From assembly GCF_024502345.1 (NCBI RefSeq), contig NZ_JALDNN010000001.1: a DNA stretch of 64,000 nt; one strand, given 5' to 3'. The first letter of the stretch is position 1. Each line of letters starts with the position of its first letter. This document shows positions 3,871-53,595 of this stretch, piece by piece. The position numbers were made by a program, and so were the translations under genes. The notes beneath the pieces are model-generated. The model did no database searches, was not told the origin of the DNA, and saw only the letters and a list, made by a program, of their open reading frames with translations. The DNA comes from Escherichia coli (GTDB lineage: Bacteria > Pseudomonadota > Gammaproteobacteria > Enterobacterales > Enterobacteriaceae).

Positions 3871-6135
<2,265 letters not shown>

Positions 6136-40752: not shown

Positions 40753-40853
40753 GCCTCATATAGCCCCTCGTACAGGGGTTCATTCACCATAGTCAGTAGC
40801 ACCTCTACGGATAGCTACTGACATGAATTGCCGTGAGGCTAAGGGAACTGGCG

Positions 40854-41948
40854 ATGATTACAGTTAATCGTGAGCGTGTGGACAATCTCTCCGGGTCTGT
40901 ATACCTGGGGCGAAATACTGACGGCAATAGGTGCTATGGGCGAATTGATAAACTCGCCTGGGTAATGGATTTGTCTGATGATAGCGAGAATGCAGTGCTG
41001 AGTGGGCGTCTGGCTGGGCTGAGAGCGGGAGGGAACTATATCGTGCGGTGCCGCCCTGCCGGTAAAGGGGAGTGTTCTGGCCTCTATCGATCCGTGGTGG
41101 AGATCCGTCTCAAGAGTAAATCCAGTCATCATCCGCTGATGCTGGTCATTTACTTTGCGCCGACGAATACGGTGCGGGGCTCAGTGCGTATGGAAATGAG
41201 TCCTCAGCACTATTCAGCAGAGCAGATCACAGGACTGTTCATCTGGCTTGGGCGTAAGGGACGTCTGGGGAAGTACCTGTACAGGGGCTTGCGCCAGGCA
41301 TGGGTGACGTCCATTCACTACGCACTGGATGTAAAGGGAATGAAACTTCATGACTACCTGATTGGTCTGGCAAAGGTTCATGATGGTGAGTTTTACGATT
41401 TGCATGGTGAACAGGAAGGGTTGCGTCTGGGCTCTGCCACGCTGGTAGCCTCTGTCTACGCCAAGGTCCATTCTCCGTCGTTGAGCGTGGAGGAGCGCTA
41501 TGCATCTCCAAAGATTACGCTGGAGGAGGCGCAATTCGAGCGTTTTTTACGTCTGGAACTCCGCCTGCAGCCGGGGCGCCAGCAATTGAAGCTAAGTCAG
41601 ATGACGAGTATGACCTGTCTGGTCAGCAGGCTGATGTTCTGGCGTCGGGAGGTACTCCAGGATCGTCGGCTGGATCCGGATTTTGCGCAGCGGCTGGCGT
41701 TGATGTCAGTACCACGTGCACGGGCCACGTTTGAGCCCGCGAGGAGTCTGAATGGCCACAGAGTCAGTGCAACCCCAAAGGCTGCCAGGAAACGCGTGGA
41801 CAAGGTCATGGCTAATTACCGGGCGGCATTGTTTGATTCTGCGGCTATCTGGGACCAGTTACCGGTCATTCTCGCAAAACTCGGGCTTCTCGCGCAGCCT
41901 CAGTACTGGATTTACCGTAATCGCGTGAAGTGGCGAGGGAGCCGCTGA
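40854..41948 (+). CDS. Hypothetical protein, possible replication-initiation function (position-based guess)
   Basis: ~364-aa ORF downstream of alpA, which is the typical location of island replication or initiator genes. I could not verify a clean HUH/Y motif. Confidence 0.35.
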   Translation: MITVNRERVDNLSGSVYLGRNTDGNRCYGRIDKLAWVMDLSDDSENAVLSGRLAGLRAGGNYIVRCRPAGKGECSGLYRSVVEIRLKSKSSHHPLMLVIYFAPTNTVRGSVRMEMSPQHYSAEQITGLFIWLGRKGRLGKYLYRGLRQAWVTSIHYALDVKGMKLHDYLIGLAKVHDGEFYDLHGEQEGLRLGSATLVASVYAKVHSPSLSVEERYASPKITLEEAQFERFLRLELRLQPGRQQLKLSQMTSMTCLVSRLMFWRREVLQDRRLDPDFAQRLALMSVPRARATFEPARSLNGHRVSATPKAARKRVDKVMANYRAALFDSAAIWDQLPVILAKLGLLAQPQYWIYRNRVKWRGSR

Positions 41949-42301: not shown

Positions 42302-43786
42302 ATGAAAGCCTACTGCACACAAAACAATATTCTCGTCACGGAAAGCACGATGAATGCTTTCAGGGAGGCCATTTTTAGCGTTCCATTCGACGACACATGT
42401 GACGGACGATGCAAGCCAACGTGGTATATGTCCATTGCTATTTTTTTGCAGCATCTTATTTGCAGCGCCACTGCGAGCCGTAACACGCGTAAGCGGTCGC
42501 AATTTAAGGGGAACCGACTATGGACCTGTTCAGTTCCGTTTCCTTATGCACTGGGAGAAAAAGTGGCTCCGGCAGTATTCAGACGCTCAAGAGAGCTACC
42601 GTTTGAAAGAGCGCTGGAAAAGCTGGAGGAAGTAGGGTTTATCAGAATCATTACACACGATGTTATACGTCACAAATGCCGGGAATTTGCGCTTTCTCGG
42701 CGGTTTCTCGACGTGCTGTTTCCCGGGGACAGAACTGCTTATCTCAACCTGGAAGATCGGTATGGCTATCTGACCGATGTTTACCGCAGACGTATGGGAC
42801 CGATGACGCTGGAAGAACGGCTTGCTCAGGCCATGTTACGAAAGTGCAAAGTCAGGCATTTAACGTCAACCCGGAATATACCTGATAAGGCCTTTCGTGA
42901 GCGGGTTGCAGCGGTGTATGACCGGCTTGAAGCGTTGCCGGTTAACATCGATGCGCTGAGGATGTACTGTAACGAGCAACCATCCACTGTGAACAGGGTT
43001 TATTATCACAATTTTATCAGCCATCTTTGTGAAGCCGGTGTTGAGGCTATCAGCCTGAGTCCGTTAATCGTCTCATATCGGCAGGTATATCGTACGGCTA
43101 GGCTGGGCGGGCGTTCGTTTGAGGTGGGGAAGGGGTTTCAGTATCTGCCAAAAGGCATGAAATGGGCATGTCTGGGGCAGGGCTATAACTACGATATAAA
43201 AAGCAGCCAGCTTGAGATACTGCGTCATGAGCTGCAGCGTATCGGATTATCCGATAAAAACCTGAAGCGGCTGGAAACGGATTACATTACAAAGAAACTG
43301 GGCGTCACCACGGATGAGGTAAAACAATTTAGGTTTGCTGCTGTCTTTAGCGCTGGTTCGGTCAGCCTTTCAGTGAAAAGTGGAGTAAGGAAGAGGCTGA
43401 ATAAAGTTCTCGGCGATAAGAGGGCAGAAAACGTGCTCAAACGCTGGAAAAAATTGATGCAACCGCTACGGGAAGATCTGAAGAGGCTGATCGAGGATTA
43501 TCTGGCGACGGGAACCACAAATCGATACGGGCTTTGCGTGAAAAATGCTGTGGGACAAAATTTTAACTGTAGCTGGAAGAATTTCAGCGCCAGACAGGCA
43601 TGGCAGCCAGCGCAGATGCACCGAAAGCTGCTTGCGCACATGTTACAGGGGCTGGAAAGTCAGGCTGTGTACGATTATGTTGCCAGCAATAAAGGCGTTT
43701 GTGCGCTAGAGCATGATGGGTTTGTTACATATGAAGAGATAACTGACTGGTCCCATCCATATCTTTTGATAGAGAAAAAGCATTGA
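42302..43786 (+). CDS. Protein with family-A DNA-polymerase-like palm/fingers motifs (divergent, no exonuclease domain)
   Basis: 494 aa. YNYDIKSSQLEILRHELQRIGLSDKNL resembles Klenow ADYSQIELRIMAHLSRDKGLL (motif A). LLAHMLQGLESQAV resembles INAPMQGTAADII. CALEHDGFV resembles MQVHDELVF (motif C). The motif-B region (LGVTTDEVKQFRFAAVFSAG) is degenerate. Confidence 0.4.
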   Translation: MKAYCTQNNILVTESTMNAFREAIFSVPFDDTCDGRCKPTWYMSIAIFLQHLICSATASRNTRKRSQFKGNRLWTCSVPFPYALGEKVAPAVFRRSRELPFERALEKLEEVGFIRIITHDVIRHKCREFALSRRFLDVLFPGDRTAYLNLEDRYGYLTDVYRRRMGPMTLEERLAQAMLRKCKVRHLTSTRNIPDKAFRERVAAVYDRLEALPVNIDALRMYCNEQPSTVNRVYYHNFISHLCEAGVEAISLSPLIVSYRQVYRTARLGGRSFEVGKGFQYLPKGMKWACLGQGYNYDIKSSQLEILRHELQRIGLSDKNLKRLETDYITKKLGVTTDEVKQFRFAAVFSAGSVSLSVKSGVRKRLNKVLGDKRAENVLKRWKKLMQPLREDLKRLIEDYLATGTTNRYGLCVKNAVGQNFNCSWKNFSARQAWQPAQMHRKLLAHMLQGLESQAVYDYVASNKGVCALEHDGFVTYEEITDWSHPYLLIEKKH

Positions 43787-43922: not shown

Positions 43923-45458
43923 ATGAAGCAAGAAACGATCGTTCAAAAAATTTGGAGTCTCTGCAACATACTAAGAGGTGATGGTATCACCTATTATCAG
44001 TATGTTTCTGAACTAAGTTATTTGCTTTTTCTGAAGATTGCTCAAGAAAATGGTTCAGAAAAGCTGATACCTCAAGGCTACCGCTGGGCTGATCTTGAAT
44101 CCCATCCAGAAGCAGGATTATTAGGGTTTTATCAAGAGATGCTCACTCACTTGGGTGCGCATGTTAAAAATGAAATCATAAGAGAGATTTACGCATTCCC
44201 TACAACCGTTTTCTCCCATTCTGAAAATTTAAAAGCTGTTGTAGATGGTATTTCGAAAATAGAGTGGCACCAAGTAGGAAAAGATGGGTTTGGCGACCTC
44301 TATAGTGGTTTAATTGATAAAAGTGCTCAAGATACGCGTTCGGGAGCCGGGCAGTATTTTACTCCACGCTCTTTAGTTAACACGATAGTGAGATTGATAA
44401 AACCGAGTCTTGGCGAATTGATTCAAGATCCTGCGTCAGGAAGTGGTGGCTTCTTAGTTTCTGCTGACAGCTATATTCGAGTCAAATATTCACGAAAAGA
44501 GTATCAATTGAACCCTCCTAAATATCAAGGAGTGGAAATAGAGAAAAATACTCGTCGAATTTGCTTAATGAATACCTTTTTACATGATTTAGATGCACAC
44601 ATTATCTATGGTGATGCACTGACTGATGACGTAGCAGGGTTGGATGAAGCCGATGTAATCTTAGCCAATCCCCCTTTTGGCAATAAGGCTGGGGGACAAC
44701 GTCCTTTACGTAACGATATTCCATTCCCCAATACAAATAAGCAATTAGCTTTTTTGCAGCATATTTATTTGAAGCTTAAAGCTGGCGGTCGAGCTGCTGT
44801 AGTGGTACCCGATAATGTACTATTCGAATCTGGGGTTGGTACCGATGTACGTCGTGACTTAATGAATAAGTGCAATCTTCATACTATCTTGCGACTGCCC
44901 ACTGGTATTTTTTACGCCCAAGGTGTTAAAACCAATGTTCTGTTCTTTACTAAAGGCTCTGACAAAGATAAATATCAACAAGATAGCTGCACTGAGAACG
45001 TCTGGGTATACGATCTACGTACCAATATGCCAAGTTTTGGTAAACGTACACCCTTCGGTAATTCAGATATTGGCTTTGCGGCAGAAGATTTCGGTACAGA
45101 TCAGCACCTCGGCGCGTTCGAAAAAGTGTTCGGAGATAATCCAGACGGCACCAGCAAGCGCACCGAAGGTGAATACAGCTTTGGTGCAACAGATATTGAA
45201 ATTGATACAGAAGCAGTAGAAGAAAACCTGAATGTTGATGAACAGCTAGCCCATTCTCGCTGGCGCTACTTCAGCCGTGAGTGGATAGCCAATAATAAAG
45301 GCGATTCGCTGGATATCTCATGGTTAAAAGACAAAAAGAGTGTCGATGCGGCTGGTTTATCCGAGCCAAACGTTCTCGCTCGCGAGGCAAAAGAAGAATT
45401 AGAAGCAGCATTGAGTGAGCTGGATAGTTTATTGATCGCATTGGAAGGGGCCGAATAA
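43923..45458 (+). CDS. hsdM: Type I restriction-modification N6-adenine DNA methyltransferase subunit
   Basis: 511 aa. It has an HsdM N-terminal domain (IVQKIWSLCNILRGDG), SAM motif I (DPASGSGGFL) and catalytic motif IV (NPPFG). Confidence 0.92.
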   Translation: MKQETIVQKIWSLCNILRGDGITYYQYVSELSYLLFLKIAQENGSEKLIPQGYRWADLESHPEAGLLGFYQEMLTHLGAHVKNEIIREIYAFPTTVFSHSENLKAVVDGISKIEWHQVGKDGFGDLYSGLIDKSAQDTRSGAGQYFTPRSLVNTIVRLIKPSLGELIQDPASGSGGFLVSADSYIRVKYSRKEYQLNPPKYQGVEIEKNTRRICLMNTFLHDLDAHIIYGDALTDDVAGLDEADVILANPPFGNKAGGQRPLRNDIPFPNTNKQLAFLQHIYLKLKAGGRAAVVVPDNVLFESGVGTDVRRDLMNKCNLHTILRLPTGIFYAQGVKTNVLFFTKGSDKDKYQQDSCTENVWVYDLRTNMPSFGKRTPFGNSDIGFAAEDFGTDQHLGAFEKVFGDNPDGTSKRTEGEYSFGATDIEIDTEAVEENLNVDEQLAHSRWRYFSREWIANNKGDSLDISWLKDKKSVDAAGLSEPNVLAREAKEELEAALSELDSLLIALEGAE

Positions 45459-47143
45459 TGATTGAGACTTCTTTACCATGGCTGAGAGTCCAGCTCGGTG
45501 ACGTAGTTCCCTATGGTAAAACCGAAAAATGCGAATTATCTGACGTTACAGGTAACACTTGGGTACTTGAGCTCGAAGATATAGAAAAAGATAGCTCGAA
45601 GATCATACAACGGCTAGATGCAACTGCACGACCATTTAAAAGCACGAAAAATAAATTCCGTAAAGGAGATGTCCTTTACGGGAAACTGCGACCTTACTTA
45701 AATAAAGTTGTCATTGCGGACAGTTCTGGCGTTTGTTCGACTGAAATCATGCCTCTAAATGCTGAGCCATTTATTGACAATAGGTACCTCTTTTACTGGT
45801 TGAAAACTGAAGTTTTTATTGATTTTGTAAATTCTGTAAGCTACGGCGTGAATATGCCTCGACTCGGAACTAAAGATGGATTAGCTGCTCCATTTATTGT
45901 AGCTCCGCTTGCTGAGCAAAAAGTTATTGCCGATAAACTTGATACCTTGTTGGTGCAGGTGGATGCCATTAAGGCTCGCCTCGAACGCATCCCAGAAATC
46001 CTAAAAACCTTCCGCCAATCGATCCTCACCGCCGCAGTTAGTGGGAAGTTGACGGAGGGATGGCGATTAAAGAATAAACTCAGTAATGTAGTTGTAAAAC
46101 AAAATATCAATCTACCAAAATTAACCCCAAATGAACACTACCTCGAACATGTTGAAGGATGGCAATGGGTAAGACTGGGTTCTGTTGTTAGTCTAATAAA
46201 CGGCGATAGAGGAAAAAACTACCCTAATAAAAATGAATATGTTAAGGATGGAATACCGTTCATAAATACAGGGCATATTAATTCAGATGGAACACTTTCT
46301 GATGAACGCATGAATTTTATTTCCAAGGATAAGTTTGACTCCTTAAGTGGGGGAAAGACGAAATCAACAGATCTAGTTTATTGCCTCCGAGGTGCAACTA
46401 TGGGAAAAACTGCACGTGTCCACTACAAAATAGGGGCAATAGCATCCTCTCTTGTAATTATCCGACCGAGTGATTACATAGACAGAGATTTCGCATATTA
46501 TTTTCTTATTAGCCCTCCGGCTAAAGATTTAATTAATGAATTTGATAACGGATCCGCTCAGCCAAATCTATCTGCAAAGAGTTTGTCTACATACCCTTTA
46601 CAACTCCCTTCGTTTAAAGAACAAATCGAAATCGTCAGTCGCGTCGAAGAAATGTTCAACTTTTCATCTCTTGCCGAAGCAAAAGCTAAAACTGCATTAG
46701 AGCGTGTCAATAAAATTACTCAATCAATCCTAGCCAAAGCTTTCCGAGGCGAACTCACTGCAGATTGGCGCGCCGCCAACCCGGATTTAATCAGCGAAGA
46801 GAAAAGTGCTGAAGCTTTGCTGGAAAAAATTAAGGCAGAACGTGAAGCCATCGAAAAACAACCTAAGCCAACACGTTCCGTTATAAAAAAAAATACAGGT
46901 GGCCGTATGAGTAAACAGATTATCAAAGTGGTTGAAGCGCTAAAACAAGCGGGAAAACCGCTTAGTGGCCAACAATTGTTAGCTGCAGCTGGTTACCCTA
47001 GTGATAGCAGTACTGAGCAACTGGAACAGTTCTTTCTGGATATACGTGACGCTCTTACCATAGAAGAGTCCATTGTAAAGCTTGAGCGCGGTGGCGACAG
47101 TCAAGATTGGTTCGCCTTGGCTAATAATAAAGCAAAGAACTAA
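45458..47143 (+). CDS. hsdS: Type I restriction-modification specificity subunit with a ~115-aa C-terminal extension
   Basis: 561 aa. Two target-recognition domains are separated by conserved coiled-coil regions (LAEQKVIADKLDTLLVQVDAIKARLERI... and FKEQIEIVSRVEEMF...ILAKAFRGELT). The start overlaps the hsdM stop (TAATG). Confidence 0.9.
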   Translation: MIETSLPWLRVQLGDVVPYGKTEKCELSDVTGNTWVLELEDIEKDSSKIIQRLDATARPFKSTKNKFRKGDVLYGKLRPYLNKVVIADSSGVCSTEIMPLNAEPFIDNRYLFYWLKTEVFIDFVNSVSYGVNMPRLGTKDGLAAPFIVAPLAEQKVIADKLDTLLVQVDAIKARLERIPEILKTFRQSILTAAVSGKLTEGWRLKNKLSNVVVKQNINLPKLTPNEHYLEHVEGWQWVRLGSVVSLINGDRGKNYPNKNEYVKDGIPFINTGHINSDGTLSDERMNFISKDKFDSLSGGKTKSTDLVYCLRGATMGKTARVHYKIGAIASSLVIIRPSDYIDRDFAYYFLISPPAKDLINEFDNGSAQPNLSAKSLSTYPLQLPSFKEQIEIVSRVEEMFNFSSLAEAKAKTALERVNKITQSILAKAFRGELTADWRAANPDLISEEKSAEALLEKIKAEREAIEKQPKPTRSVIKKNTGGRMSKQIIKVVEALKQAGKPLSGQQLLAAAGYPSDSSTEQLEQFFLDIRDALTIEESIVKLERGGDSQDWFALANNKAKN

Positions 47144-47152
47144 GGACAGCCC

Positions 47153-48757
47153 ATGAAAGTCGACAAACTGCATATTCGCTCACGCTTTAAAAATCTTGAA
47201 AACGTGAAAGTGGACTTTGACGAAAACCACCTGATGACCGTTATCGTAGGCCGTAATGGTTCCGGTAAGTCCAATGTTCTAGAAGCCTTGGTTGCTATAT
47301 TTCGCAATCTTGATTTAGGTGAAGCACCAACATTTTCTTATGAGTTGGACTATCAACTAGGTGAGGAAGCCGGGGTTAAGTGGTATGACGTCAAGGTTGA
47401 TGCAGATCCAGACCGCGGAACGCTAGCAAAGCAATACCAAGTTTATGTCAAAGATAAACACGATAGCAAAGCGGATTTCAAGCTTACACCCTTCTCCAAA
47501 GTGAAACGCGATAAGAAAACCAAACAAGCAGAGTTTCTTCCTAACTTTCTATTCGCCTATTATTCCGGACCATCGGATAGATTAGAAAAATACTTTCGAA
47601 AGCATCGTGATGATTATTATCGAAACCTACTCTACAACAAGCTTGACTTGAAAGCAGATATTCGTTCTCTATTTTATGCCAAACCCTATCACAGTCAGTT
47701 TGTGCTCTTGGCATTTTTCCTGTCAGATGAAAATAGTCCTCAGCGCAAGTTTATTAAGGAGCATTTGGGTATTGAGGGATTGGACAGTATTCATTTTGTG
47801 ATGCGCCAACCTGAGTGGGCTAAGCTGAAGGGGGAATTATTCTGGGGAGCACAAGGTGTAGTTCGTCGCTTTTTGGATGAATTGATACAGCACACATTGT
47901 CACCGATAAAAGTAACTCGTCAAGAAGATACGTCGTTAACGGGTAGTTATATTCGAAATGAGTTCTTTCATCTATTTTTACCTGACGTAAACGCACTACA
48001 TGAATTTGCTAGAGATCTCAGTGCTGACGAACTGTTTAAAATGCTTGAAAGCACTCTGCTGTCAGAAATTATCTCTGAGGTTAGCATACGGGTGAAAGTA
48101 ACCAGCAGCAGGGAGCCTCTCACTTTCCGTGAACTTAGCGAAGGTGAACAACAGCTATTAACCGTATTGGGCTTACTCTGGTTCACCGGTGGTAAAGATT
48201 CCTTATTTTTACTCGACGAACCTGATACCCACCTTAATCCGTCATGGGCCGTTAAATACCTTAAATTCCTGCGTGAATTCGTACCCAATCATGAAACCAG
48301 CCATTTACTAATGGTCACACACCATCCTTTAGCTATTGCCGAGCTGAAGAAACAACAAGTACAAGTCATGTGGCGTGACGATGAAAATAATGTTCACTCA
48401 CAAGAGCCTTATATAGATCCTCGTGGCGCTGGCTTTATGGCCACACTTACTGAGATTTTTGGTCTAAATACAACACTGGATCTGGAAACCCAAAAGTTAT
48501 TGGACGATAGGAACGAACTAGCCCATATCGAAAATCGAACAGAAGATCAGAACAACCAGCTTGACCTTCTTAATGATGAGTTAAACAGACTAGGATTTTC
48601 ACTTGAAAACAGGGACCCGTTATACAGCGAGTTTCTTTTAGCATGGCAAGACCTAAGATACAGCGATAAACCACCACTAACACCGGATAAAGCGGCTCAG
48701 AGACGAGCTGCTATGAAAAATGTAATTGAGGCGCTTAAAGCTAAGAAGGGTTGCTAA
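47153..48757 (+). CDS. ABC/SMC-like AAA ATPase (AAA_15/AAA_21 type; Septu PtuA-like)
   Basis: 534 aa. Motifs are Walker A GRNGSGKS, signature-like LSEGEQQL, Walker B LFLLDEPDTHL and H-loop VTHHP. It starts 9 nt after the hsdS stop, behind an AAGGA SD. Confidence 0.8.
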   Translation: MKVDKLHIRSRFKNLENVKVDFDENHLMTVIVGRNGSGKSNVLEALVAIFRNLDLGEAPTFSYELDYQLGEEAGVKWYDVKVDADPDRGTLAKQYQVYVKDKHDSKADFKLTPFSKVKRDKKTKQAEFLPNFLFAYYSGPSDRLEKYFRKHRDDYYRNLLYNKLDLKADIRSLFYAKPYHSQFVLLAFFLSDENSPQRKFIKEHLGIEGLDSIHFVMRQPEWAKLKGELFWGAQGVVRRFLDELIQHTLSPIKVTRQEDTSLTGSYIRNEFFHLFLPDVNALHEFARDLSADELFKMLESTLLSEIISEVSIRVKVTSSREPLTFRELSEGEQQLLTVLGLLWFTGGKDSLFLLDEPDTHLNPSWAVKYLKFLREFVPNHETSHLLMVTHHPLAIAELKKQQVQVMWRDDENNVHSQEPYIDPRGAGFMATLTEIFGLNTTLDLETQKLLDDRNELAHIENRTEDQNNQLDLLNDELNRLGFSLENRDPLYSEFLLAWQDLRYSDKPPLTPDKAAQRRAAMKNVIEALKAKKGC

Positions 48758-49599
48758 TGATTTACATCAAACGAGACGCCACGCTAATTCCTGCAAAGGT
48801 ACTTGCCGTTGCCCAACGCGCGCAAGATGCTCTGGAACAGCTTCCCGCTGAGCAGAGGAAAGGTTTCATCAAGAAAAAGTCTCATATATGGAGAGGCTTT
48901 TCTAAATACCTAGCCCAAATGTCTTATGGGAAGTGCTGGTATTCAGAAGCTAAAGATGCAGGTGCAAATTTCGATGTAGATCATTTCCGACCTAAGGCTG
49001 AAGCAAAGAGGACAGAAGATTTGGTCGATGCGGATGGTTATGCGTGGCTCGCATTTGATTGGGAAAACTTCAGGCTTTCTGCTCAGAATTGTAACCGTTT
49101 AAACACAGATGAATCAGGTAACACGGTAGGAAAAGGCAGTTGGTTCCCGCTGCTAGATGGTAGCCCTAAAGCCTGCTGGGATAATCGCTGTATTAACGAT
49201 GAAAAAGTCACTTTGCTAGACCCTGTAGTTAAAGCTGACCTCACCTATATAGACTACGACGACAGCGGTAGATTTACTTCAAGTAAGCTCTGCGTTGGTA
49301 AGGCAGCATTAAGGGTTAGGCAATCTGGCATTATTTATGGCCTCAATTTGGAGAAAATGCGTGAAGCACGATTTCAGGTTATGAGGGAGGCTAAAGAACT
49401 CCTTGAAACTATTCACCAATGTGCCGAAGACTTAGACCCTCTGGGCAATGAAGCCCCCATGAGAACTATTGAACGACAAATAGAACAACTCCAATCCAGA
49501 ACCCGGGCCGATGCACCATTTAGCCGTGCAGTAAGAACACAACTGATAAAACTCGGTGCAGAGGATTACTTAATTGATCGAAGTTTGGATGCAGCCTAG
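48757..49599 (+). CDS. HNH/His-Me-finger nuclease-like protein (TIGR02646/PtuB-like)
   Basis: ~280 aa. CWYSE...DVDHFRPK...WENFRLSAQNCNRLN fits the HNH layout (catalytic His in DHFRP, downstream Asn residues), with partly degenerate zinc ligands. The ATG at 48757 overlaps the ATPase stop (TAATG); the track ORF begins at a TTG at 48751. Confidence 0.7.
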   Translation: MIYIKRDATLIPAKVLAVAQRAQDALEQLPAEQRKGFIKKKSHIWRGFSKYLAQMSYGKCWYSEAKDAGANFDVDHFRPKAEAKRTEDLVDADGYAWLAFDWENFRLSAQNCNRLNTDESGNTVGKGSWFPLLDGSPKACWDNRCINDEKVTLLDPVVKADLTYIDYDDSGRFTSSKLCVGKAALRVRQSGIIYGLNLEKMREARFQVMREAKELLETIHQCAEDLDPLGNEAPMRTIERQIEQLQSRTRADAPFSRAVRTQLIKLGAEDYLIDRSLDAA

Positions 49600-49770: not shown

Positions 49771-49941
49771 ATGAGCACCCACAAAAAAACTCAGGCAAGC
49801 TACGCTAAGCCATCTCGTGCTGACATTGTTCGCTCAGTAGCAACATCTACGGCTGTTGAAACAGGGCAGTCCTCCGCGAAGATCGAAGCTTCACTTGAAG
49901 CCACGCGCAAAAAATTTGCTCATTTGCGTCTTGCGGTTTAA
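49771..49941 (+). CDS. Small hypothetical protein (56 aa), possible Fic-associated antitoxin-like peptide
   Basis: The ATG at 49771 is preceded by a strong SD (AGGAGTGATTATG), with an extended -10-like TGGTATACT at 49715-49723. It contains S-x-x-x-E elements (STAVETG, SAKIEA). Its stop overlaps the stop of the convergent fic gene. Confidence 0.4.
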   Translation: MSTHKKTQASYAKPSRADIVRSVATSTAVETGQSSAKIEASLEATRKKFAHLRLAV

Positions 49942-50555
49942 TCCCTTCTTAATGCTTCTCGCACCCAGTGTTTCATCGGCTCATAGTCCATTGATATGCC
50001 AGCATGGATGGCCGATATATACTGAGTTTTGTTTTGCTCCCAGCTTTGATAATCCAGCGGTTTGTATCCTCCCTGAACGGCCATCACGTCGGCTAGCAGT
50101 CGCGACAGGCGTCCGTTTCCCTCTCTGAATGGATGGATAAGTATTATCTCTACATGGGTTATGGCGATAGCGGTGATGAGTTGTTCTTCGTCCATGCCGC
50201 TACACGGTGTGTATTGAGCCAGATACTTAGTGTCGAATTCGTTCAGCAGTTTTGGCACCTGCGCTGAGGGGGCAAACATAAAGCCGCCTTTGCTAATATT
50301 CACCGCTCTTTCTTGTCCAGCCCACTCGTAGATGTTACCTAACCAGCGGCGATGCCAGCTTTTTAGCATGGCTACGCTGAGCTGTCCTTCCGGGAACTGC
50401 TCTTCAAAAACAGACTGGTAGAGTTGTTCTAACAGGACAAGTTCAGCCTCATCCATCTCATCAGAAGTCGCAATCCCCAGCTTATTAGCCAAAACCTGCT
50501 CGCCAGAGTCTTTCTCATACTGGCCTTCACTGCTGGATACATGGTATCGGCTCAT
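49938..50555 (-). CDS. fic: Fic/DOC-family protein (putative AMPylase)
   Basis: 205 aa with the canonical Fic motif HPFREGNGRLSR. Confidence 0.88.
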   Translation of the reverse strand: MSRYHVSSSEGQYEKDSGEQVLANKLGIATSDEMDEAELVLLEQLYQSVFEEQFPEGQLSVAMLKSWHRRWLGNIYEWAGQERAVNISKGGFMFAPSAQVPKLLNEFDTKYLAQYTPCSGMDEEQLITAIAITHVEIILIHPFREGNGRLSRLLADVMAVQGGYKPLDYQSWEQNKTQYISAIHAGISMDYEPMKHWVREALRRD

Positions 50556-51443: not shown

Positions 51444-53522
51444 TTAAATCAATGCCGATTTATCAATTCCCAGTCGCTTCATCCGTGACAGCAGGGTCGT
51501 GCGTTTCAGCCCCAGACGTTGCGCAGCGCCTTTAGGCCCGGCAACCACGCCGTTAGTTTCTTTCAGCACGCGAACAATCAACTGATATTCATCTTCGCCC
51601 TCCTGAGCGACAACCGTTGCGGCAGGCGGCGTTTCAGGCTCCGGTAAAGCAATATCTGGCAATGACAACTGCAGCACGTTGCCGCGTGTTAGCAATACCG
51701 CGCGCTCAATGACGTTTTCCAGTTCGCGTACGTTACCCGGCCACTCCATATTGCTCAAGGTGCGCAACGTCTCGGCAGGAATGCTGTCGATATTGCGCCC
51801 CAGACGACGGGCAATTTTGAAGGTAAAGGCTTTCGCCAGCAGCGGAATATCTTCCGGACGCTCGCGTAGTGGCGGAAGGTGAATCGGGAATACGTTCAGG
51901 CGGTAATAGAGATCGCTACGGAACTCACGGTCGGCGACCATTTTTTTCAGATCGCGGTTAGTCGCGGCAATTAAACGTACGTCCGTCTGAATGATTTTGT
52001 TGCTGCCGAGACGTTCAAACTCCTGTTCCTGCAATACACGCAGCAACTTCGGCTGTAACTCCAGTGGCATATCGCCCACTTCGTCGAGGAACAGGGAGCT
52101 TTTATCCGCCAGTTCAAAACGACCAATGCGCTGGGCGCTGGCACCGGTAAAAGCCCCACGCTCATGACCAAACAGATCGCTTTCCAGTAATCCGGCAGGC
52201 ATCGCCGCGCAGTTCATTTTGACCATGCGGCGATTATTACGCCCACTGAGATTATGGATCGCGCGGGCAATCAGCTCTTTACCCGTGCCAGTTTCACCGA
52301 GGATCAGCACGGTACTGTCACTTTGCGCCACCATTTCAACTTGTTTAAGCACGCTGTACATGGCTTCGCTGCGGCCAATAATCTCGCCAAATTCACTATC
52401 AACATTGTTGAGCTGCTCGGTCAGGGCGAGGTTTTCATCAACCAGCCGTTCTTTCAGACGATGGATTTCCTGATAGGCGAGGGCGTTATCGACAGCGATT
52501 GCCACACGTTCGGCAATCTGGCGCAGTAAATTCAGATTGGTAGTGGTAAACACTTTCTCTTCGCATTGCGCCAGTTTCAGCACGCCCAGCATGGTGTCGC
52601 CAGACATCAGCGGTAACAGGCACAAGGTTTGAATCTGGTTGCCCCAGGTGTCGAACAACATGCGTTCATAGGGGGCTAAATCGTCCCGCTCGTGGAGATT
52701 GATCAGCAGCATCTCTTTACTTTTGAACACGCGTTCGGTGAGGGTTCCGGCTTCATCGACTTCGCTCTGTTCGTGGGCGGGATGTTGTTTATCAAGATAG
52801 TGAGTGGAGTAGATGTTGAGTTTGTTTTTACGGTGGCTGCGTAAGACAATGCTGATATCGTCAATGTCGAAATAGTAATGGATTTCTTTGGCGACTTCGC
52901 TGACCAGTTCGTCCATATCCAGGCGGGAAAGCACCGCGTTGGTGATGGCGACCAGGATGCGGAAGTTATCGCGTTCCCGGCATAACAACTCATAGTCGAC
53001 ATTGTTAACGACGCGACTCTGGATTTGTTCGGTGATGACAGAAACGATCTGCGTAAATGTTTGCAGACGATTGAACTCTTTTTCGCTCCAGGGGCGATCG
53101 TCATAACGAATAAATTCACAGCCACCAAAAATATGCCCTTCCGCCGCCAGTGGCATCAGGCAATAGTGACCAAATTTTGGGTATAGCCCACCTGCGGCCA
53201 GCTGCGGCCAGGTTTCACAAAATTCTTCGTAACTGCAATGCAGCGTATCAGGGCGCGACAAAATGCTGCGTACCGGACCGTGTGCCAGAACAGTTTCGTC
53301 TTCATATTTAATGGGGGTGTCTTTTTCACGCGATGCGTAATAAGACGCACGTTGAGTCTGCGCTTGCCACAACACAATAGCCGCGTTGTCGGCGAGCGCA
53401 GAACGCTTTACCAGTTGCGAAAGAGCCTCACACAGCGAGGCCAGATCGGGCTGCTGCAATAGTGTCCGAGTGATGTCGAACAACCCTTGCTGTCCGAGAT
53501 CACTCATCGGTGTATATGACAT
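51444..53522 (-). CDS. fhlA: Formate hydrogenlyase transcriptional activator (sigma-54 enhancer-binding protein)
   Basis: The start at 53522 gives 692 aa, MSYTPMSDLGQQGLFDITRTLLQQ.... It has GAF domains, an AAA+ core (GETGTGKE, GAFTGA) and a C-terminal HTH. Confidence 0.96.
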   Translation of the reverse strand: MSYTPMSDLGQQGLFDITRTLLQQPDLASLCEALSQLVKRSALADNAAIVLWQAQTQRASYYASREKDTPIKYEDETVLAHGPVRSILSRPDTLHCSYEEFCETWPQLAAGGLYPKFGHYCLMPLAAEGHIFGGCEFIRYDDRPWSEKEFNRLQTFTQIVSVITEQIQSRVVNNVDYELLCRERDNFRILVAITNAVLSRLDMDELVSEVAKEIHYYFDIDDISIVLRSHRKNKLNIYSTHYLDKQHPAHEQSEVDEAGTLTERVFKSKEMLLINLHERDDLAPYERMLFDTWGNQIQTLCLLPLMSGDTMLGVLKLAQCEEKVFTTTNLNLLRQIAERVAIAVDNALAYQEIHRLKERLVDENLALTEQLNNVDSEFGEIIGRSEAMYSVLKQVEMVAQSDSTVLILGETGTGKELIARAIHNLSGRNNRRMVKMNCAAMPAGLLESDLFGHERGAFTGASAQRIGRFELADKSSLFLDEVGDMPLELQPKLLRVLQEQEFERLGSNKIIQTDVRLIAATNRDLKKMVADREFRSDLYYRLNVFPIHLPPLRERPEDIPLLAKAFTFKIARRLGRNIDSIPAETLRTLSNMEWPGNVRELENVIERAVLLTRGNVLQLSLPDIALPEPETPPAATVVAQEGEDEYQLIVRVLKETNGVVAGPKGAAQRLGLKRTTLLSRMKRLGIDKSALI

Positions 53523-53595
53523 TTTGTTCTTCCAGGAAAGCACCGCAAAGCGGTGCAAAAGGTCATTGACTAACTATAGGAGATTTAGAATTTTA

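Follow-up and report, generated by a model that had tools for sequence, protein, structure and literature searches.

The four-gene cassette analyzed here, hsdM-hsdS-ptuA-ptuB, lies in a 64-kb stretch of Escherichia coli DNA (contig NZ_JALDNN010000001.1; this whole stretch is called the window below) and has to be seen against several described defence systems. Septu (Doron et al. 2018; PDB 8EE4/8EEA) pairs an ABC ATPase, PtuA, with an HNH nuclease, PtuB, and these share domains and sizes with the last two proteins of the cassette. The cassette pair is nevertheless remote in sequence from the solved Septu proteins and is never free-standing, being always accompanied by hsdM and by an hsdS with an extra domain; Septu proper is an ATP-regulated nuclease assembled as PtuA6:PtuB2. 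In Retron-Eco7/Ec78 (type I-A) a PtuAB effector has likewise been co-opted by a separate sensor or specificity module, but the sensor is there a reverse transcriptase with its multicopy single-stranded DNA (RT-msDNA) and here a type I methyltransferase core. With the type IA restriction-modification (R-M) systems EcoKI and EcoBI the cassette shares the HsdM plus HsdS architecture and its conserved regions, and it differs from them in lacking HsdR, in the distance of its HsdM (52% identical to that of EcoBI), in a winged-helix tail on HsdS and in the two added genes. Immediately after hsdS, EcoprrI (a type IC locus) and the Campylobacter rlo genes also present an ABC-type ATPase effector (PrrC in EcoprrI), one that is functionally tied to the type I complex; however, PrrC carries its anticodon-nuclease domain at the C-terminus of one and the same polypeptide and needs a complete HsdRMS, whereas the cassette encodes its nuclease separately, as an HNH protein, and can dispense with HsdR. 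The eight-gene MADS, finally, combines HsdM-like and HsdS-like proteins with an ABC-type ATPase in the absence of HsdR, and its use of the former two for methylation-based discrimination sets a precedent for the function that we favor below. The cassette differs from MADS in having four genes and in lacking the mandatory MAD6, MAD7 and MAD8, and its scores with the MADS models of NCBIfam fall far below the cut-offs (89 against 720 bits for MAD2, 28 against 420 for MAD3 and 51 against 400 for MAD5). PrrC, DarTG2 and TgvAB in type I loci, Septu in Hma loci, the co-option of PtuAB by retrons and the HsdR-less MADS are therefore already known. The literature that we searched, the coverage of which was incomplete, contained no hsdM-hsdS-ptuAB unit, in agreement with the initial annotation of the window, which had taken the arrangement to be undescribed as a defence system, and gave no description of the HsdR-less clade or of the HsdS tail reported here.

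Taking the comparative results together, it is very likely that hsdM-hsdS-ptuA-ptuB is a coupled and mobile unit that works without a linked HsdR, and not the product of a one-off deletion. The initial annotation had described four open reading frames (ORFs) on the plus strand with operon-like coupling, and all four were recovered (Table 1), with a TAATG shared by hsdM and hsdS, a gap of 9 nt between hsdS and the ATPase gene with an AAGGA overlapping the hsdS stop codon, and a second shared TAATG between the ATPase and HNH genes. The ORF lister offers TTG 48751 as another start for the HNH gene, but because of the TAATG shared with the ATPase gene we take the ATG used by RefSeq as the true start of ptuB. 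A promoter and terminator scan of the operon gave nothing above chance. The catalytic motifs quoted by that annotation were all found and are invariant in our alignments of homologues, namely NPPFG and DPASGSGGF in HsdM, GRNGSGKSN (Walker A), LSEGEQQ (signature), LFLLDEPD (Walker B) and THH (H-loop) in the ATPase, and the HNH-like core FDVDHFRPK...N...N in the last protein, of which H76, N104 and N113 are invariant in the PtuB alignment.

The first two proteins have the features of a type I methyltransferase. HsdM is an EcoKI-like N6-adenine methyltransferase with motifs I and IV, as indicated by the Pfam families N6_Mtase (E 1e-70) and HsdM_N, by PADLOC MTase_I (E 3e-190) and by a full-length match to EcoKI HsdM (PDB 2y7c_B, E 5e-158). 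HsdS shows the two target recognition domains (TRDs) attributed to it, as two stretches of Pfam Methylase_S, together with conserved regions that align with the EcoKI-type model (PADLOC Specificity_I, E 8e-114), its approximate layout being TRD1 at residues 1-160, a central conserved region at 161-200, TRD2 at 201-400 and a distal conserved region at 401-484. The subunit that a type I R-M system would add is missing: no HsdR was found in the window by tblastn with 35 HsdR proteins of related loci, none of the large window ORFs checked by domain content is an HsdR, and RefSeq annotates none on the island that carries the cassette. The earlier statement that the window holds no HsdR thus stands, but its wider form, that no helicase-nuclease of superfamily 2 occurs there at all, does not, because of a Cas3-type ORF near the left end of the window.

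The assignment of the last two proteins to Septu, proposed at first from motifs and sizes, was upheld by profiles: the ATPase matches PADLOC PtuA (PDLC00293, E 2e-215) over positions 1-532 of 534 and the nuclease matches PADLOC PtuB (PDLC00343, E 1e-99) over its full length. Among the families suggested for checking, AAA_21 and AAA_15 match the ATPase in Pfam, as does SMC_N, but TIGR02646 fails on PtuB (20.5 bits, below the cut-off of 52.15), and PtuB has no match in Pfam, HNH families included. In NCBIfam the best match of the ATPase is TIGR04435, "restriction system-associated AAA ATPase" (163 bits, below the cut-off of 300), a name showing that curators had noticed a restriction link for a related ATPase family, and the retron-type models score far below their cut-offs (63.5 against 500 for PtuA and 37.6 against 150 for PtuB). 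Sequence matches of PtuA to Septu and retron PtuA in the PDB are weak, the solved Septu PtuA giving E ~5e-7 over ~70 residues, and the PtuB sequence has no match to the solved Septu PtuB. The AlphaFold2 model of PtuB (mean predicted local distance difference test, pLDDT, 76; C-terminal helical domain confident, HNH core low) retrieved with Foldseek only PtuB chains among its top 10 in the PDB, from retrons Ec78, Eco7 and Ec83 and from E. coli Septu, with weak E values of 0.065-1.6. Judged from these profile and fold comparisons, the ATPase and nuclease belong, as a divergent pair, to the Septu effector family in its broad sense.

A domain of HsdS accompanies this association. All 77 PtuAB-linked HsdS proteins (482-642 aa) continue beyond the conserved regions into a basic linker and a conserved C-terminal domain of ~75 aa, whereas EcoBI HsdS ends at about residue 485, just short of it, and within the HsdR-less clade described below this extra domain is the most conserved segment of HsdS (80-92% identity). 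AlphaFold2 predicts for it a winged helix (pLDDT 80-89, topology H-b-H-H-b-b). Among 1.84 billion representatives a profile of the domain picked out 134 clusters, in which the domain is practically always located at the extreme C-terminus; the 63 full-length carriers tested were without exception Methylase_S proteins, and in none of them is the tail covered by a Pfam family. All four metagenome matches have ptuA next, in a scan of low power that used a close alignment and poor search patterns and gave only these four loci. Searching a protein word index with the tail returned only short ORFs from split or uncalled hsdS genes. Kleisin C-terminal winged helices, which bind the heads of SMC ABC ATPases, are among the winged helix-turn-helix (wHTH) folds matched by the tail, a lead rather than evidence; our guess is that the HsdS winged helix may be a docking domain for PtuA. 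In a Klebsiella pneumoniae locus (L094, Table 1) hsdS is split between a core ORF and a short ORF made up of the winged-helix tail alone; with 68 blocks of the collection listing this short protein, the split form is widespread, and it constitutes a natural test of whether the tail acts in trans.

The linkage of the pair to hsdS extends far beyond E. coli. A scan of genomes with the PtuA alignment gave 80 loci with PtuA identities from 81 down to 40%, in Gamma-, Beta- and Alphaproteobacteria, Fibrobacteres, Verrucomicrobia, Planctomycetes, Chloroflexi, Actinobacteria, Nitrospinota, Bacteroidota and Methanothrix; in the plasmid collection five records matched PtuA, and in the phage collection none did. 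In every locus with enough sequence (~90 loci, those from other look-ups included) ptuA-ptuB directly follows hsdS, and hsdM is placed upstream in most loci (M-S-A-B, the letters standing for HsdM, HsdS, PtuA and PtuB) and downstream in about 16 (S-A-B-M), so that the autonomous two-gene state of Septu was seen in none of the ~90. These data bear on the possibility that an autonomous Septu became embedded long ago beside an orphan methyltransferase that serves the mobile element for epigenetic or anti-restriction ends, the two travelling together uncoupled. Defence genes are often found embedded in this way within Hma and type I R-M loci (Septu in Hma, DarTG2, TgvAB and PrrC), and standard tools would call Septu alone here. 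We nevertheless regard uncoupled travel as improbable, since the S-A-B adjacency admits no exception in ~90 loci and two gene orders, the extra domain of HsdS occurs only in this context among the loci examined, the junctions are translationally coupled, and Hma-embedded Septu makes up merely 0.7% of Septu systems.

Whether the unit can do without HsdR was assessed from the flanks of its relatives and from the HsdM phylogeny. The initial annotation had reasoned that an hsdR routinely found immediately downstream in close homologues would make this copy a simple deletion product; no relative has it there, but in the sister clade it is routinely just upstream. A large upstream ORF on the same strand is HsdR (ResIII, EcoEI_R_C, HSDR_N) in many relatives, in the gene orders R-[SoFic]-M-S-A-B or R-S-A-B-M. 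The label type IB that the EcoEI_R_C match had first suggested for these HsdRs was corrected to EcoKI-like or type IA-like by the HsdM and hsdR comparisons. Mapped on the HsdM clades, HsdR is present in none of the 23 loci of the clade that contains the window (two of them, L044 and L084, with only ~1 kb of upstream sequence), in 24 of the 33 loci of the sister clade that includes EcoBI (with HsdR stubs in L034 and L081 and an HsdR cut by the contig end in L015), and in nine of the ten loci of the S-A-B-M group with enough flank, directly upstream of hsdS. The clade of the window comprises E. coli, Salmonella, Klebsiella, Enterobacter, Trabulsiella, Acinetobacter, Advenella, Vibrio, alphaproteobacteria and a metagenome-assembled genome of Nitrospinota, and within it a subclade of 11 enteric, gamma- and betaproteobacterial loci has a bootstrap of 100%. 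HsdR-less cassettes were found on a Klebsiella integrase island, an E. coli integrative and conjugative element (ICE) and a Salmonella island similar to that of the window, and one also on a Yersinia island, and the clade of the window is present on plasmids too; the genes flanking them are of the housekeeping or mobile-element kind (glmS, ParB, a DUF3987 primase, a DUF3363 protein, transposases, integrases, VirD4/TraG, resolvases and tra genes), with no conserved fifth gene found in the flanks. The exact block (at least 99% identity) occurs in 6 of 5426 complete E. coli genomes, and three further E. coli genomes carry at yicC-dinD a version ~80% identical, from which hsdR is likewise absent.

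Because the sister clade has an upstream hsdR and one of its loci keeps an HsdR stub, the form without HsdR probably descends from R-M-S-PtuAB loci. That stub, in L034, stands directly before hsdM, is 82% identical to the HsdR of L036 and by this comparison is an HsdR deletion in progress in a locus of the HsdR-containing clade. An Enterobacter locus (L004) is a genuine type IA R-M-S system with appended ptuAB: it shares 79% DNA identity with E. coli B in hsdR and 95% identity with EcoBI in HsdM, and its PtuA (83%) and PtuB (78%) resemble those of the window. The first alternative of the initial annotation, a type I locus that lost hsdR, is thus probably right as history and is not favored as an account of function. 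One might suppose instead that HsdR is supplied in trans by a resident hsd locus of the EcoKI family, the island adding only a new specificity. Subunits are interchangeable within one type I family. The HsdM of the cassette is EcoKI-like, and 938 of 5426 complete E. coli genomes have a type IA hsdR. This explanation is very unlikely to hold, as an identity of 52% to EcoBI HsdM seems far below the levels seen within a family (95% in L004), the HsdR-less clade also occurs in Acinetobacter, Vibrio, Advenella and alphaproteobacteria, and PtuAB and the HsdS tail would be left unexplained. Strain ET490, with a cassette 100% identical to ours, speaks against it as well: between yjiA and mdtM, brnTA and an insertion sequence (IS1) replace mrr-hsdRMS-symE-mcrBC, and there is no HsdR at this canonical hsd locus, though the rest of the genome may still contain one.

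Further evidence came from the selective constraints acting on the lineage. Thirteen diverged loci without HsdR have preserved each of the four ORFs intact, NPPF is always kept and the Walker motifs are retained, and the dN/dS values in the HsdR-less clade are 0.05-0.09 for hsdM, 0.07-0.14 for ptuA and 0.04-0.08 for ptuB (dS ~0.7-2). HsdS is a mosaic of the classic type I sort in this clade, the window sharing TRD1 with L002 and L087 (88-98%), TRD2 with L084 (88-95%) and neither with the other HsdR-less loci, so that the two TRDs were swapped independently. The preservation of NPPF, the low dN/dS and the continuing shuffling of TRDs are as expected if methylation and specificity matter. Two types of PtuB, one like that of the window and one ~32% identical, each occur in loci with and without HsdR, which shows that PtuAB functions independently of HsdR and that PtuAB modules move between the two kinds of loci. 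On these signatures of selection, the HsdR-less lineage is functional and not decaying. That the cassette is instead a remnant of a recent hsdR loss with pseudogenization under way is scarcely credible and already largely refuted by the intact ORFs and their selection; the HsdR stub of L034, the IS-disrupted or split hsdS genes of Klebsiella and the rarity of the block in E. coli would fit such decay, whereas the intact catalytic motifs of the 13 diverged loci, strong purifying selection at saturated dS and the spread of the clade over several bacterial classes and kinds of mobile element contradict it.

As to function, the second alternative of the initial annotation, discrimination by the methyltransferase on behalf of an ATPase-HNH effector, is the one that the comparative evidence favors, namely the obligate S-A-B order, the linkage-specific HsdS domain, the HsdR-less mobile clade, selection, TRD shuffling and ET490; that PtuAB replaces HsdR as effector, which it also proposed, is an inference, and a PrrC-like guard would suit much of this evidence as well. 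Since methyltransferase catalysis and the diversification of specificity are both maintained without HsdR, we tentatively prefer a model in which the M2S complex marks self DNA, senses sequence and methylation state, and thereby licenses the PtuAB effector, with the HsdS winged helix as adaptor. HsdM and HsdS would form an EcoKI-like M2S1 enzyme that methylates a bipartite target on host DNA, marking it as self, and that would recognize the same sites when unmethylated. The PtuA-PtuB complex would be physically coupled to M2S, most likely through docking of the extra winged helix on PtuA, and would occupy the place of HsdR as effector. Unmethylated foreign DNA may then license PtuAB either to cleave DNA or, as other PtuAB systems of Septu and retrons do, to cleave tRNA and arrest the infected cell. 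What the comparisons show directly is the gene content, the constant S-A-B linkage, the additional HsdS domain and the conserved clade without HsdR, from which coupling, trigger and substrate are inferred.

Several observations weigh against this model. About half of the family also has HsdR, and a second effector on the same M2S looks redundant there. The HsdR-less clade as a whole has a bootstrap of only 60%, and the flanks examined reach ~6.8 kb upstream, with L015 showing that HsdR can lie further off. Foldseek with the HsdS tail gave generic wHTH matches only (E >= 0.014). The PtuAB systems described so far are reported to respond to other cues (ATP level, degradation of msDNA) and not to unmethylated DNA. 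The shuffling of TRDs could be passive import from HsdR-containing systems, and an operon restricting unmethylated DNA has a problem of establishment in a new host, with no evident regulator.

The presence of HsdR in half of the family is better accommodated by a guard of the PrrC kind, for which PtuAB would be complementary to a complete R-M-S rather than redundant. PtuAB would here be held inactive on M2S (or R2M2S) and freed when a phage anti-restriction protein (a DNA mimic such as Ocr or ArdA, or an Stp-like peptide) binds or disables the complex, its release leading to abortive infection through cleavage of tRNA or DNA, and M2S would serve as sensor or bait in the loci without HsdR. In EcoprrI, PrrC is likewise an ABC-type ATPase effector whose gene comes directly after hsdS, and T4 Stp activates it; retrons already hold PtuAB in check by a sensor module; tRNA-Tyr is reported to be cleaved by Septu and retron-Eco7 PtuAB; and a docked guard would account just as well for the S-A-B adjacency and the HsdS tail. 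We consider a guard less likely than the sensor model, though its most serious competitor, because a bait needs no catalysis, yet NPPF is invariant and hsdM is constrained without HsdR, TRD diversification continues in those same loci, and some carrier elements encode anti-restriction proteins beside the cassette (ArdC in L085 and L086, a protein of the Antirestrict family in L096), which would risk self-triggering.

Returning to the sensor model, it is possible, and we put this more cautiously still, that M2S-PtuAB constitutes a distinct class of R-M-like immunity across bacterial phyla and some archaea, in which the methyltransferase core uses a dedicated winged helix on HsdS to recruit an ATPase/HNH effector, HsdR being optional as a second one. 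What triggers Septu is still a matter of debate, and without HsdR type I systems are assumed to have no activity in defence. If the model is true, the type I specificity and methylation core would be a reusable sensor able to drive a different effector, and Septu-type effectors would gain a defined and programmable DNA-sequence trigger, that is, sequence- and methylation-specific recognition. Because pipelines split such loci into "Septu" and "incomplete type I R-M", the orphan type I methylases that mobile elements carry may be misinterpreted. With its small size (5.7 kb) and its origin in E. coli, the system lends itself to direct tests through cloning.

Table 1. Positions of the cassette genes, of neighboring features of the window and of features in related loci (L numbers)
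Feature	Sequence	Position	Strand	Description
hsdM	window	43923-45458	+	511 aa, type I (EcoKI-like) N6-adenine DNA methyltransferase
hsdS	window	45458-47143	+	561 aa, specificity subunit
HsdS C-terminal extension	window	46910-47119	+	predicted winged helix, residues ~485-554
ptuA-like gene	window	47153-48757	+	534 aa, ABC-type ATPase
ptuB-like gene	window	48757-49599	+	280 aa, HNH nuclease, DHxRPK...N...N, C-terminal helical domain
small ORF	window	49771-49941	+	56 aa
fic	window	49938-50555	-	205 aa
first ORF before cassette	window	40833-41948	+	371 aa
second ORF before cassette	window	42302-43786	+	494 aa
Cas3-type ORF	window	3874-6135	+	753 aa
fhlA	window	51444-53558	-	704 aa from TTG
ET490 immigration-control locus	L091, NZ_CP100947	4185080-4186552		brnTA and IS1
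HsdR stub	L034	6645-6938		97 aa, N-terminal
split hsdS	L094	8530-10243		488-aa core and 80-aa tail ORF
ScoMcrA-like gene	L085	5619-6491	-	DNA-binding and HNH_2 protein
ScoMcrA-like gene	L086	4550-5422	-	DNA-binding and HNH_2 protein
second ATPase and partner	L087	12966-15016	-	AAA_15/AAA_21 ATPase (423 aa) and 260-aa protein
Fic gene before hsdM	L005	5696-6796
Fic gene before hsdM	L014	5572-6732
Fic gene before hsdM	L057	5716-6843
Fic gene before hsdM	L027	5756-6919		DUF4172 and Fic
Fic-M-S-A-B	L102	4624-5703		Fic gene of Fic-M-S-A-B on a Vibrio vulnificus conjugative plasmid
Fic and small-ORF pair	L096	16758-17527		Yersinia island

The cassette lies at the right end of a low-GC island of ~21 kb that is situated between mutS and ygbA and contains two integrases, one IS, an AlpA gene and several ORFs without assignment; no convincing att-like direct repeats were found bounding it. 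Downstream of ptuB there follow the small ORF and the convergent fic gene stated by the initial annotation, which overlap by 4 nt, and then ygbA. The Fic protein matches the PADLOC candidate PDC-S04 over its full length (E 1e-101), and a similar pair of a Fic gene and a small ORF lies beside an integrase on the Yersinia island with M-S-A-B (L096). The two ORFs preceding the cassette have no Pfam or PADLOC match; on the Salmonella island L087 their homologues (411 and 490 aa) stand before the cassette in this order too, with an integrase and AlpA ahead of them, and both ORFs may serve the replication or mobility of this family of islands.

Other genes accompany the cassette in related loci. On the E. 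coli ICE (L085 and L086) it is inserted between traI/ardC and traG/traU, and the ScoMcrA-like gene adjoining hsdM in divergent orientation probably encodes a type IV restriction enzyme. On the Salmonella island L087 the second ATPase gene and its partner converge on ptuB and are probably another two-gene defence system. A Fic gene directly precedes hsdM in ~13 loci of the EcoBI-like HsdM clade, a clade in which most loci have HsdR, so that those with HsdR read R-Fic-M-S-A-B; of four Fic proteins scanned, three are SoFic-like (Fic_N and Fic, two of them with SoFic-like_C), the fourth being that of L027. In the plasmid locus L102, HsdR is not annotated nearby.

Elsewhere in the window, fhlA is frameshifted in the RefSeq annotation of ET490, where it is written "FlhA". 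The Cas3-type ORF sits in a low-GC stretch and combines Cas3_HD, a partial DEAD helicase, the Cas3 C-terminal domain and a Cas2-like (Cas_Cas2CT1978) C-terminus, and it resembles a fusion of cas3 and cas2 that remained after part of a type I-E CRISPR-Cas locus was deleted.

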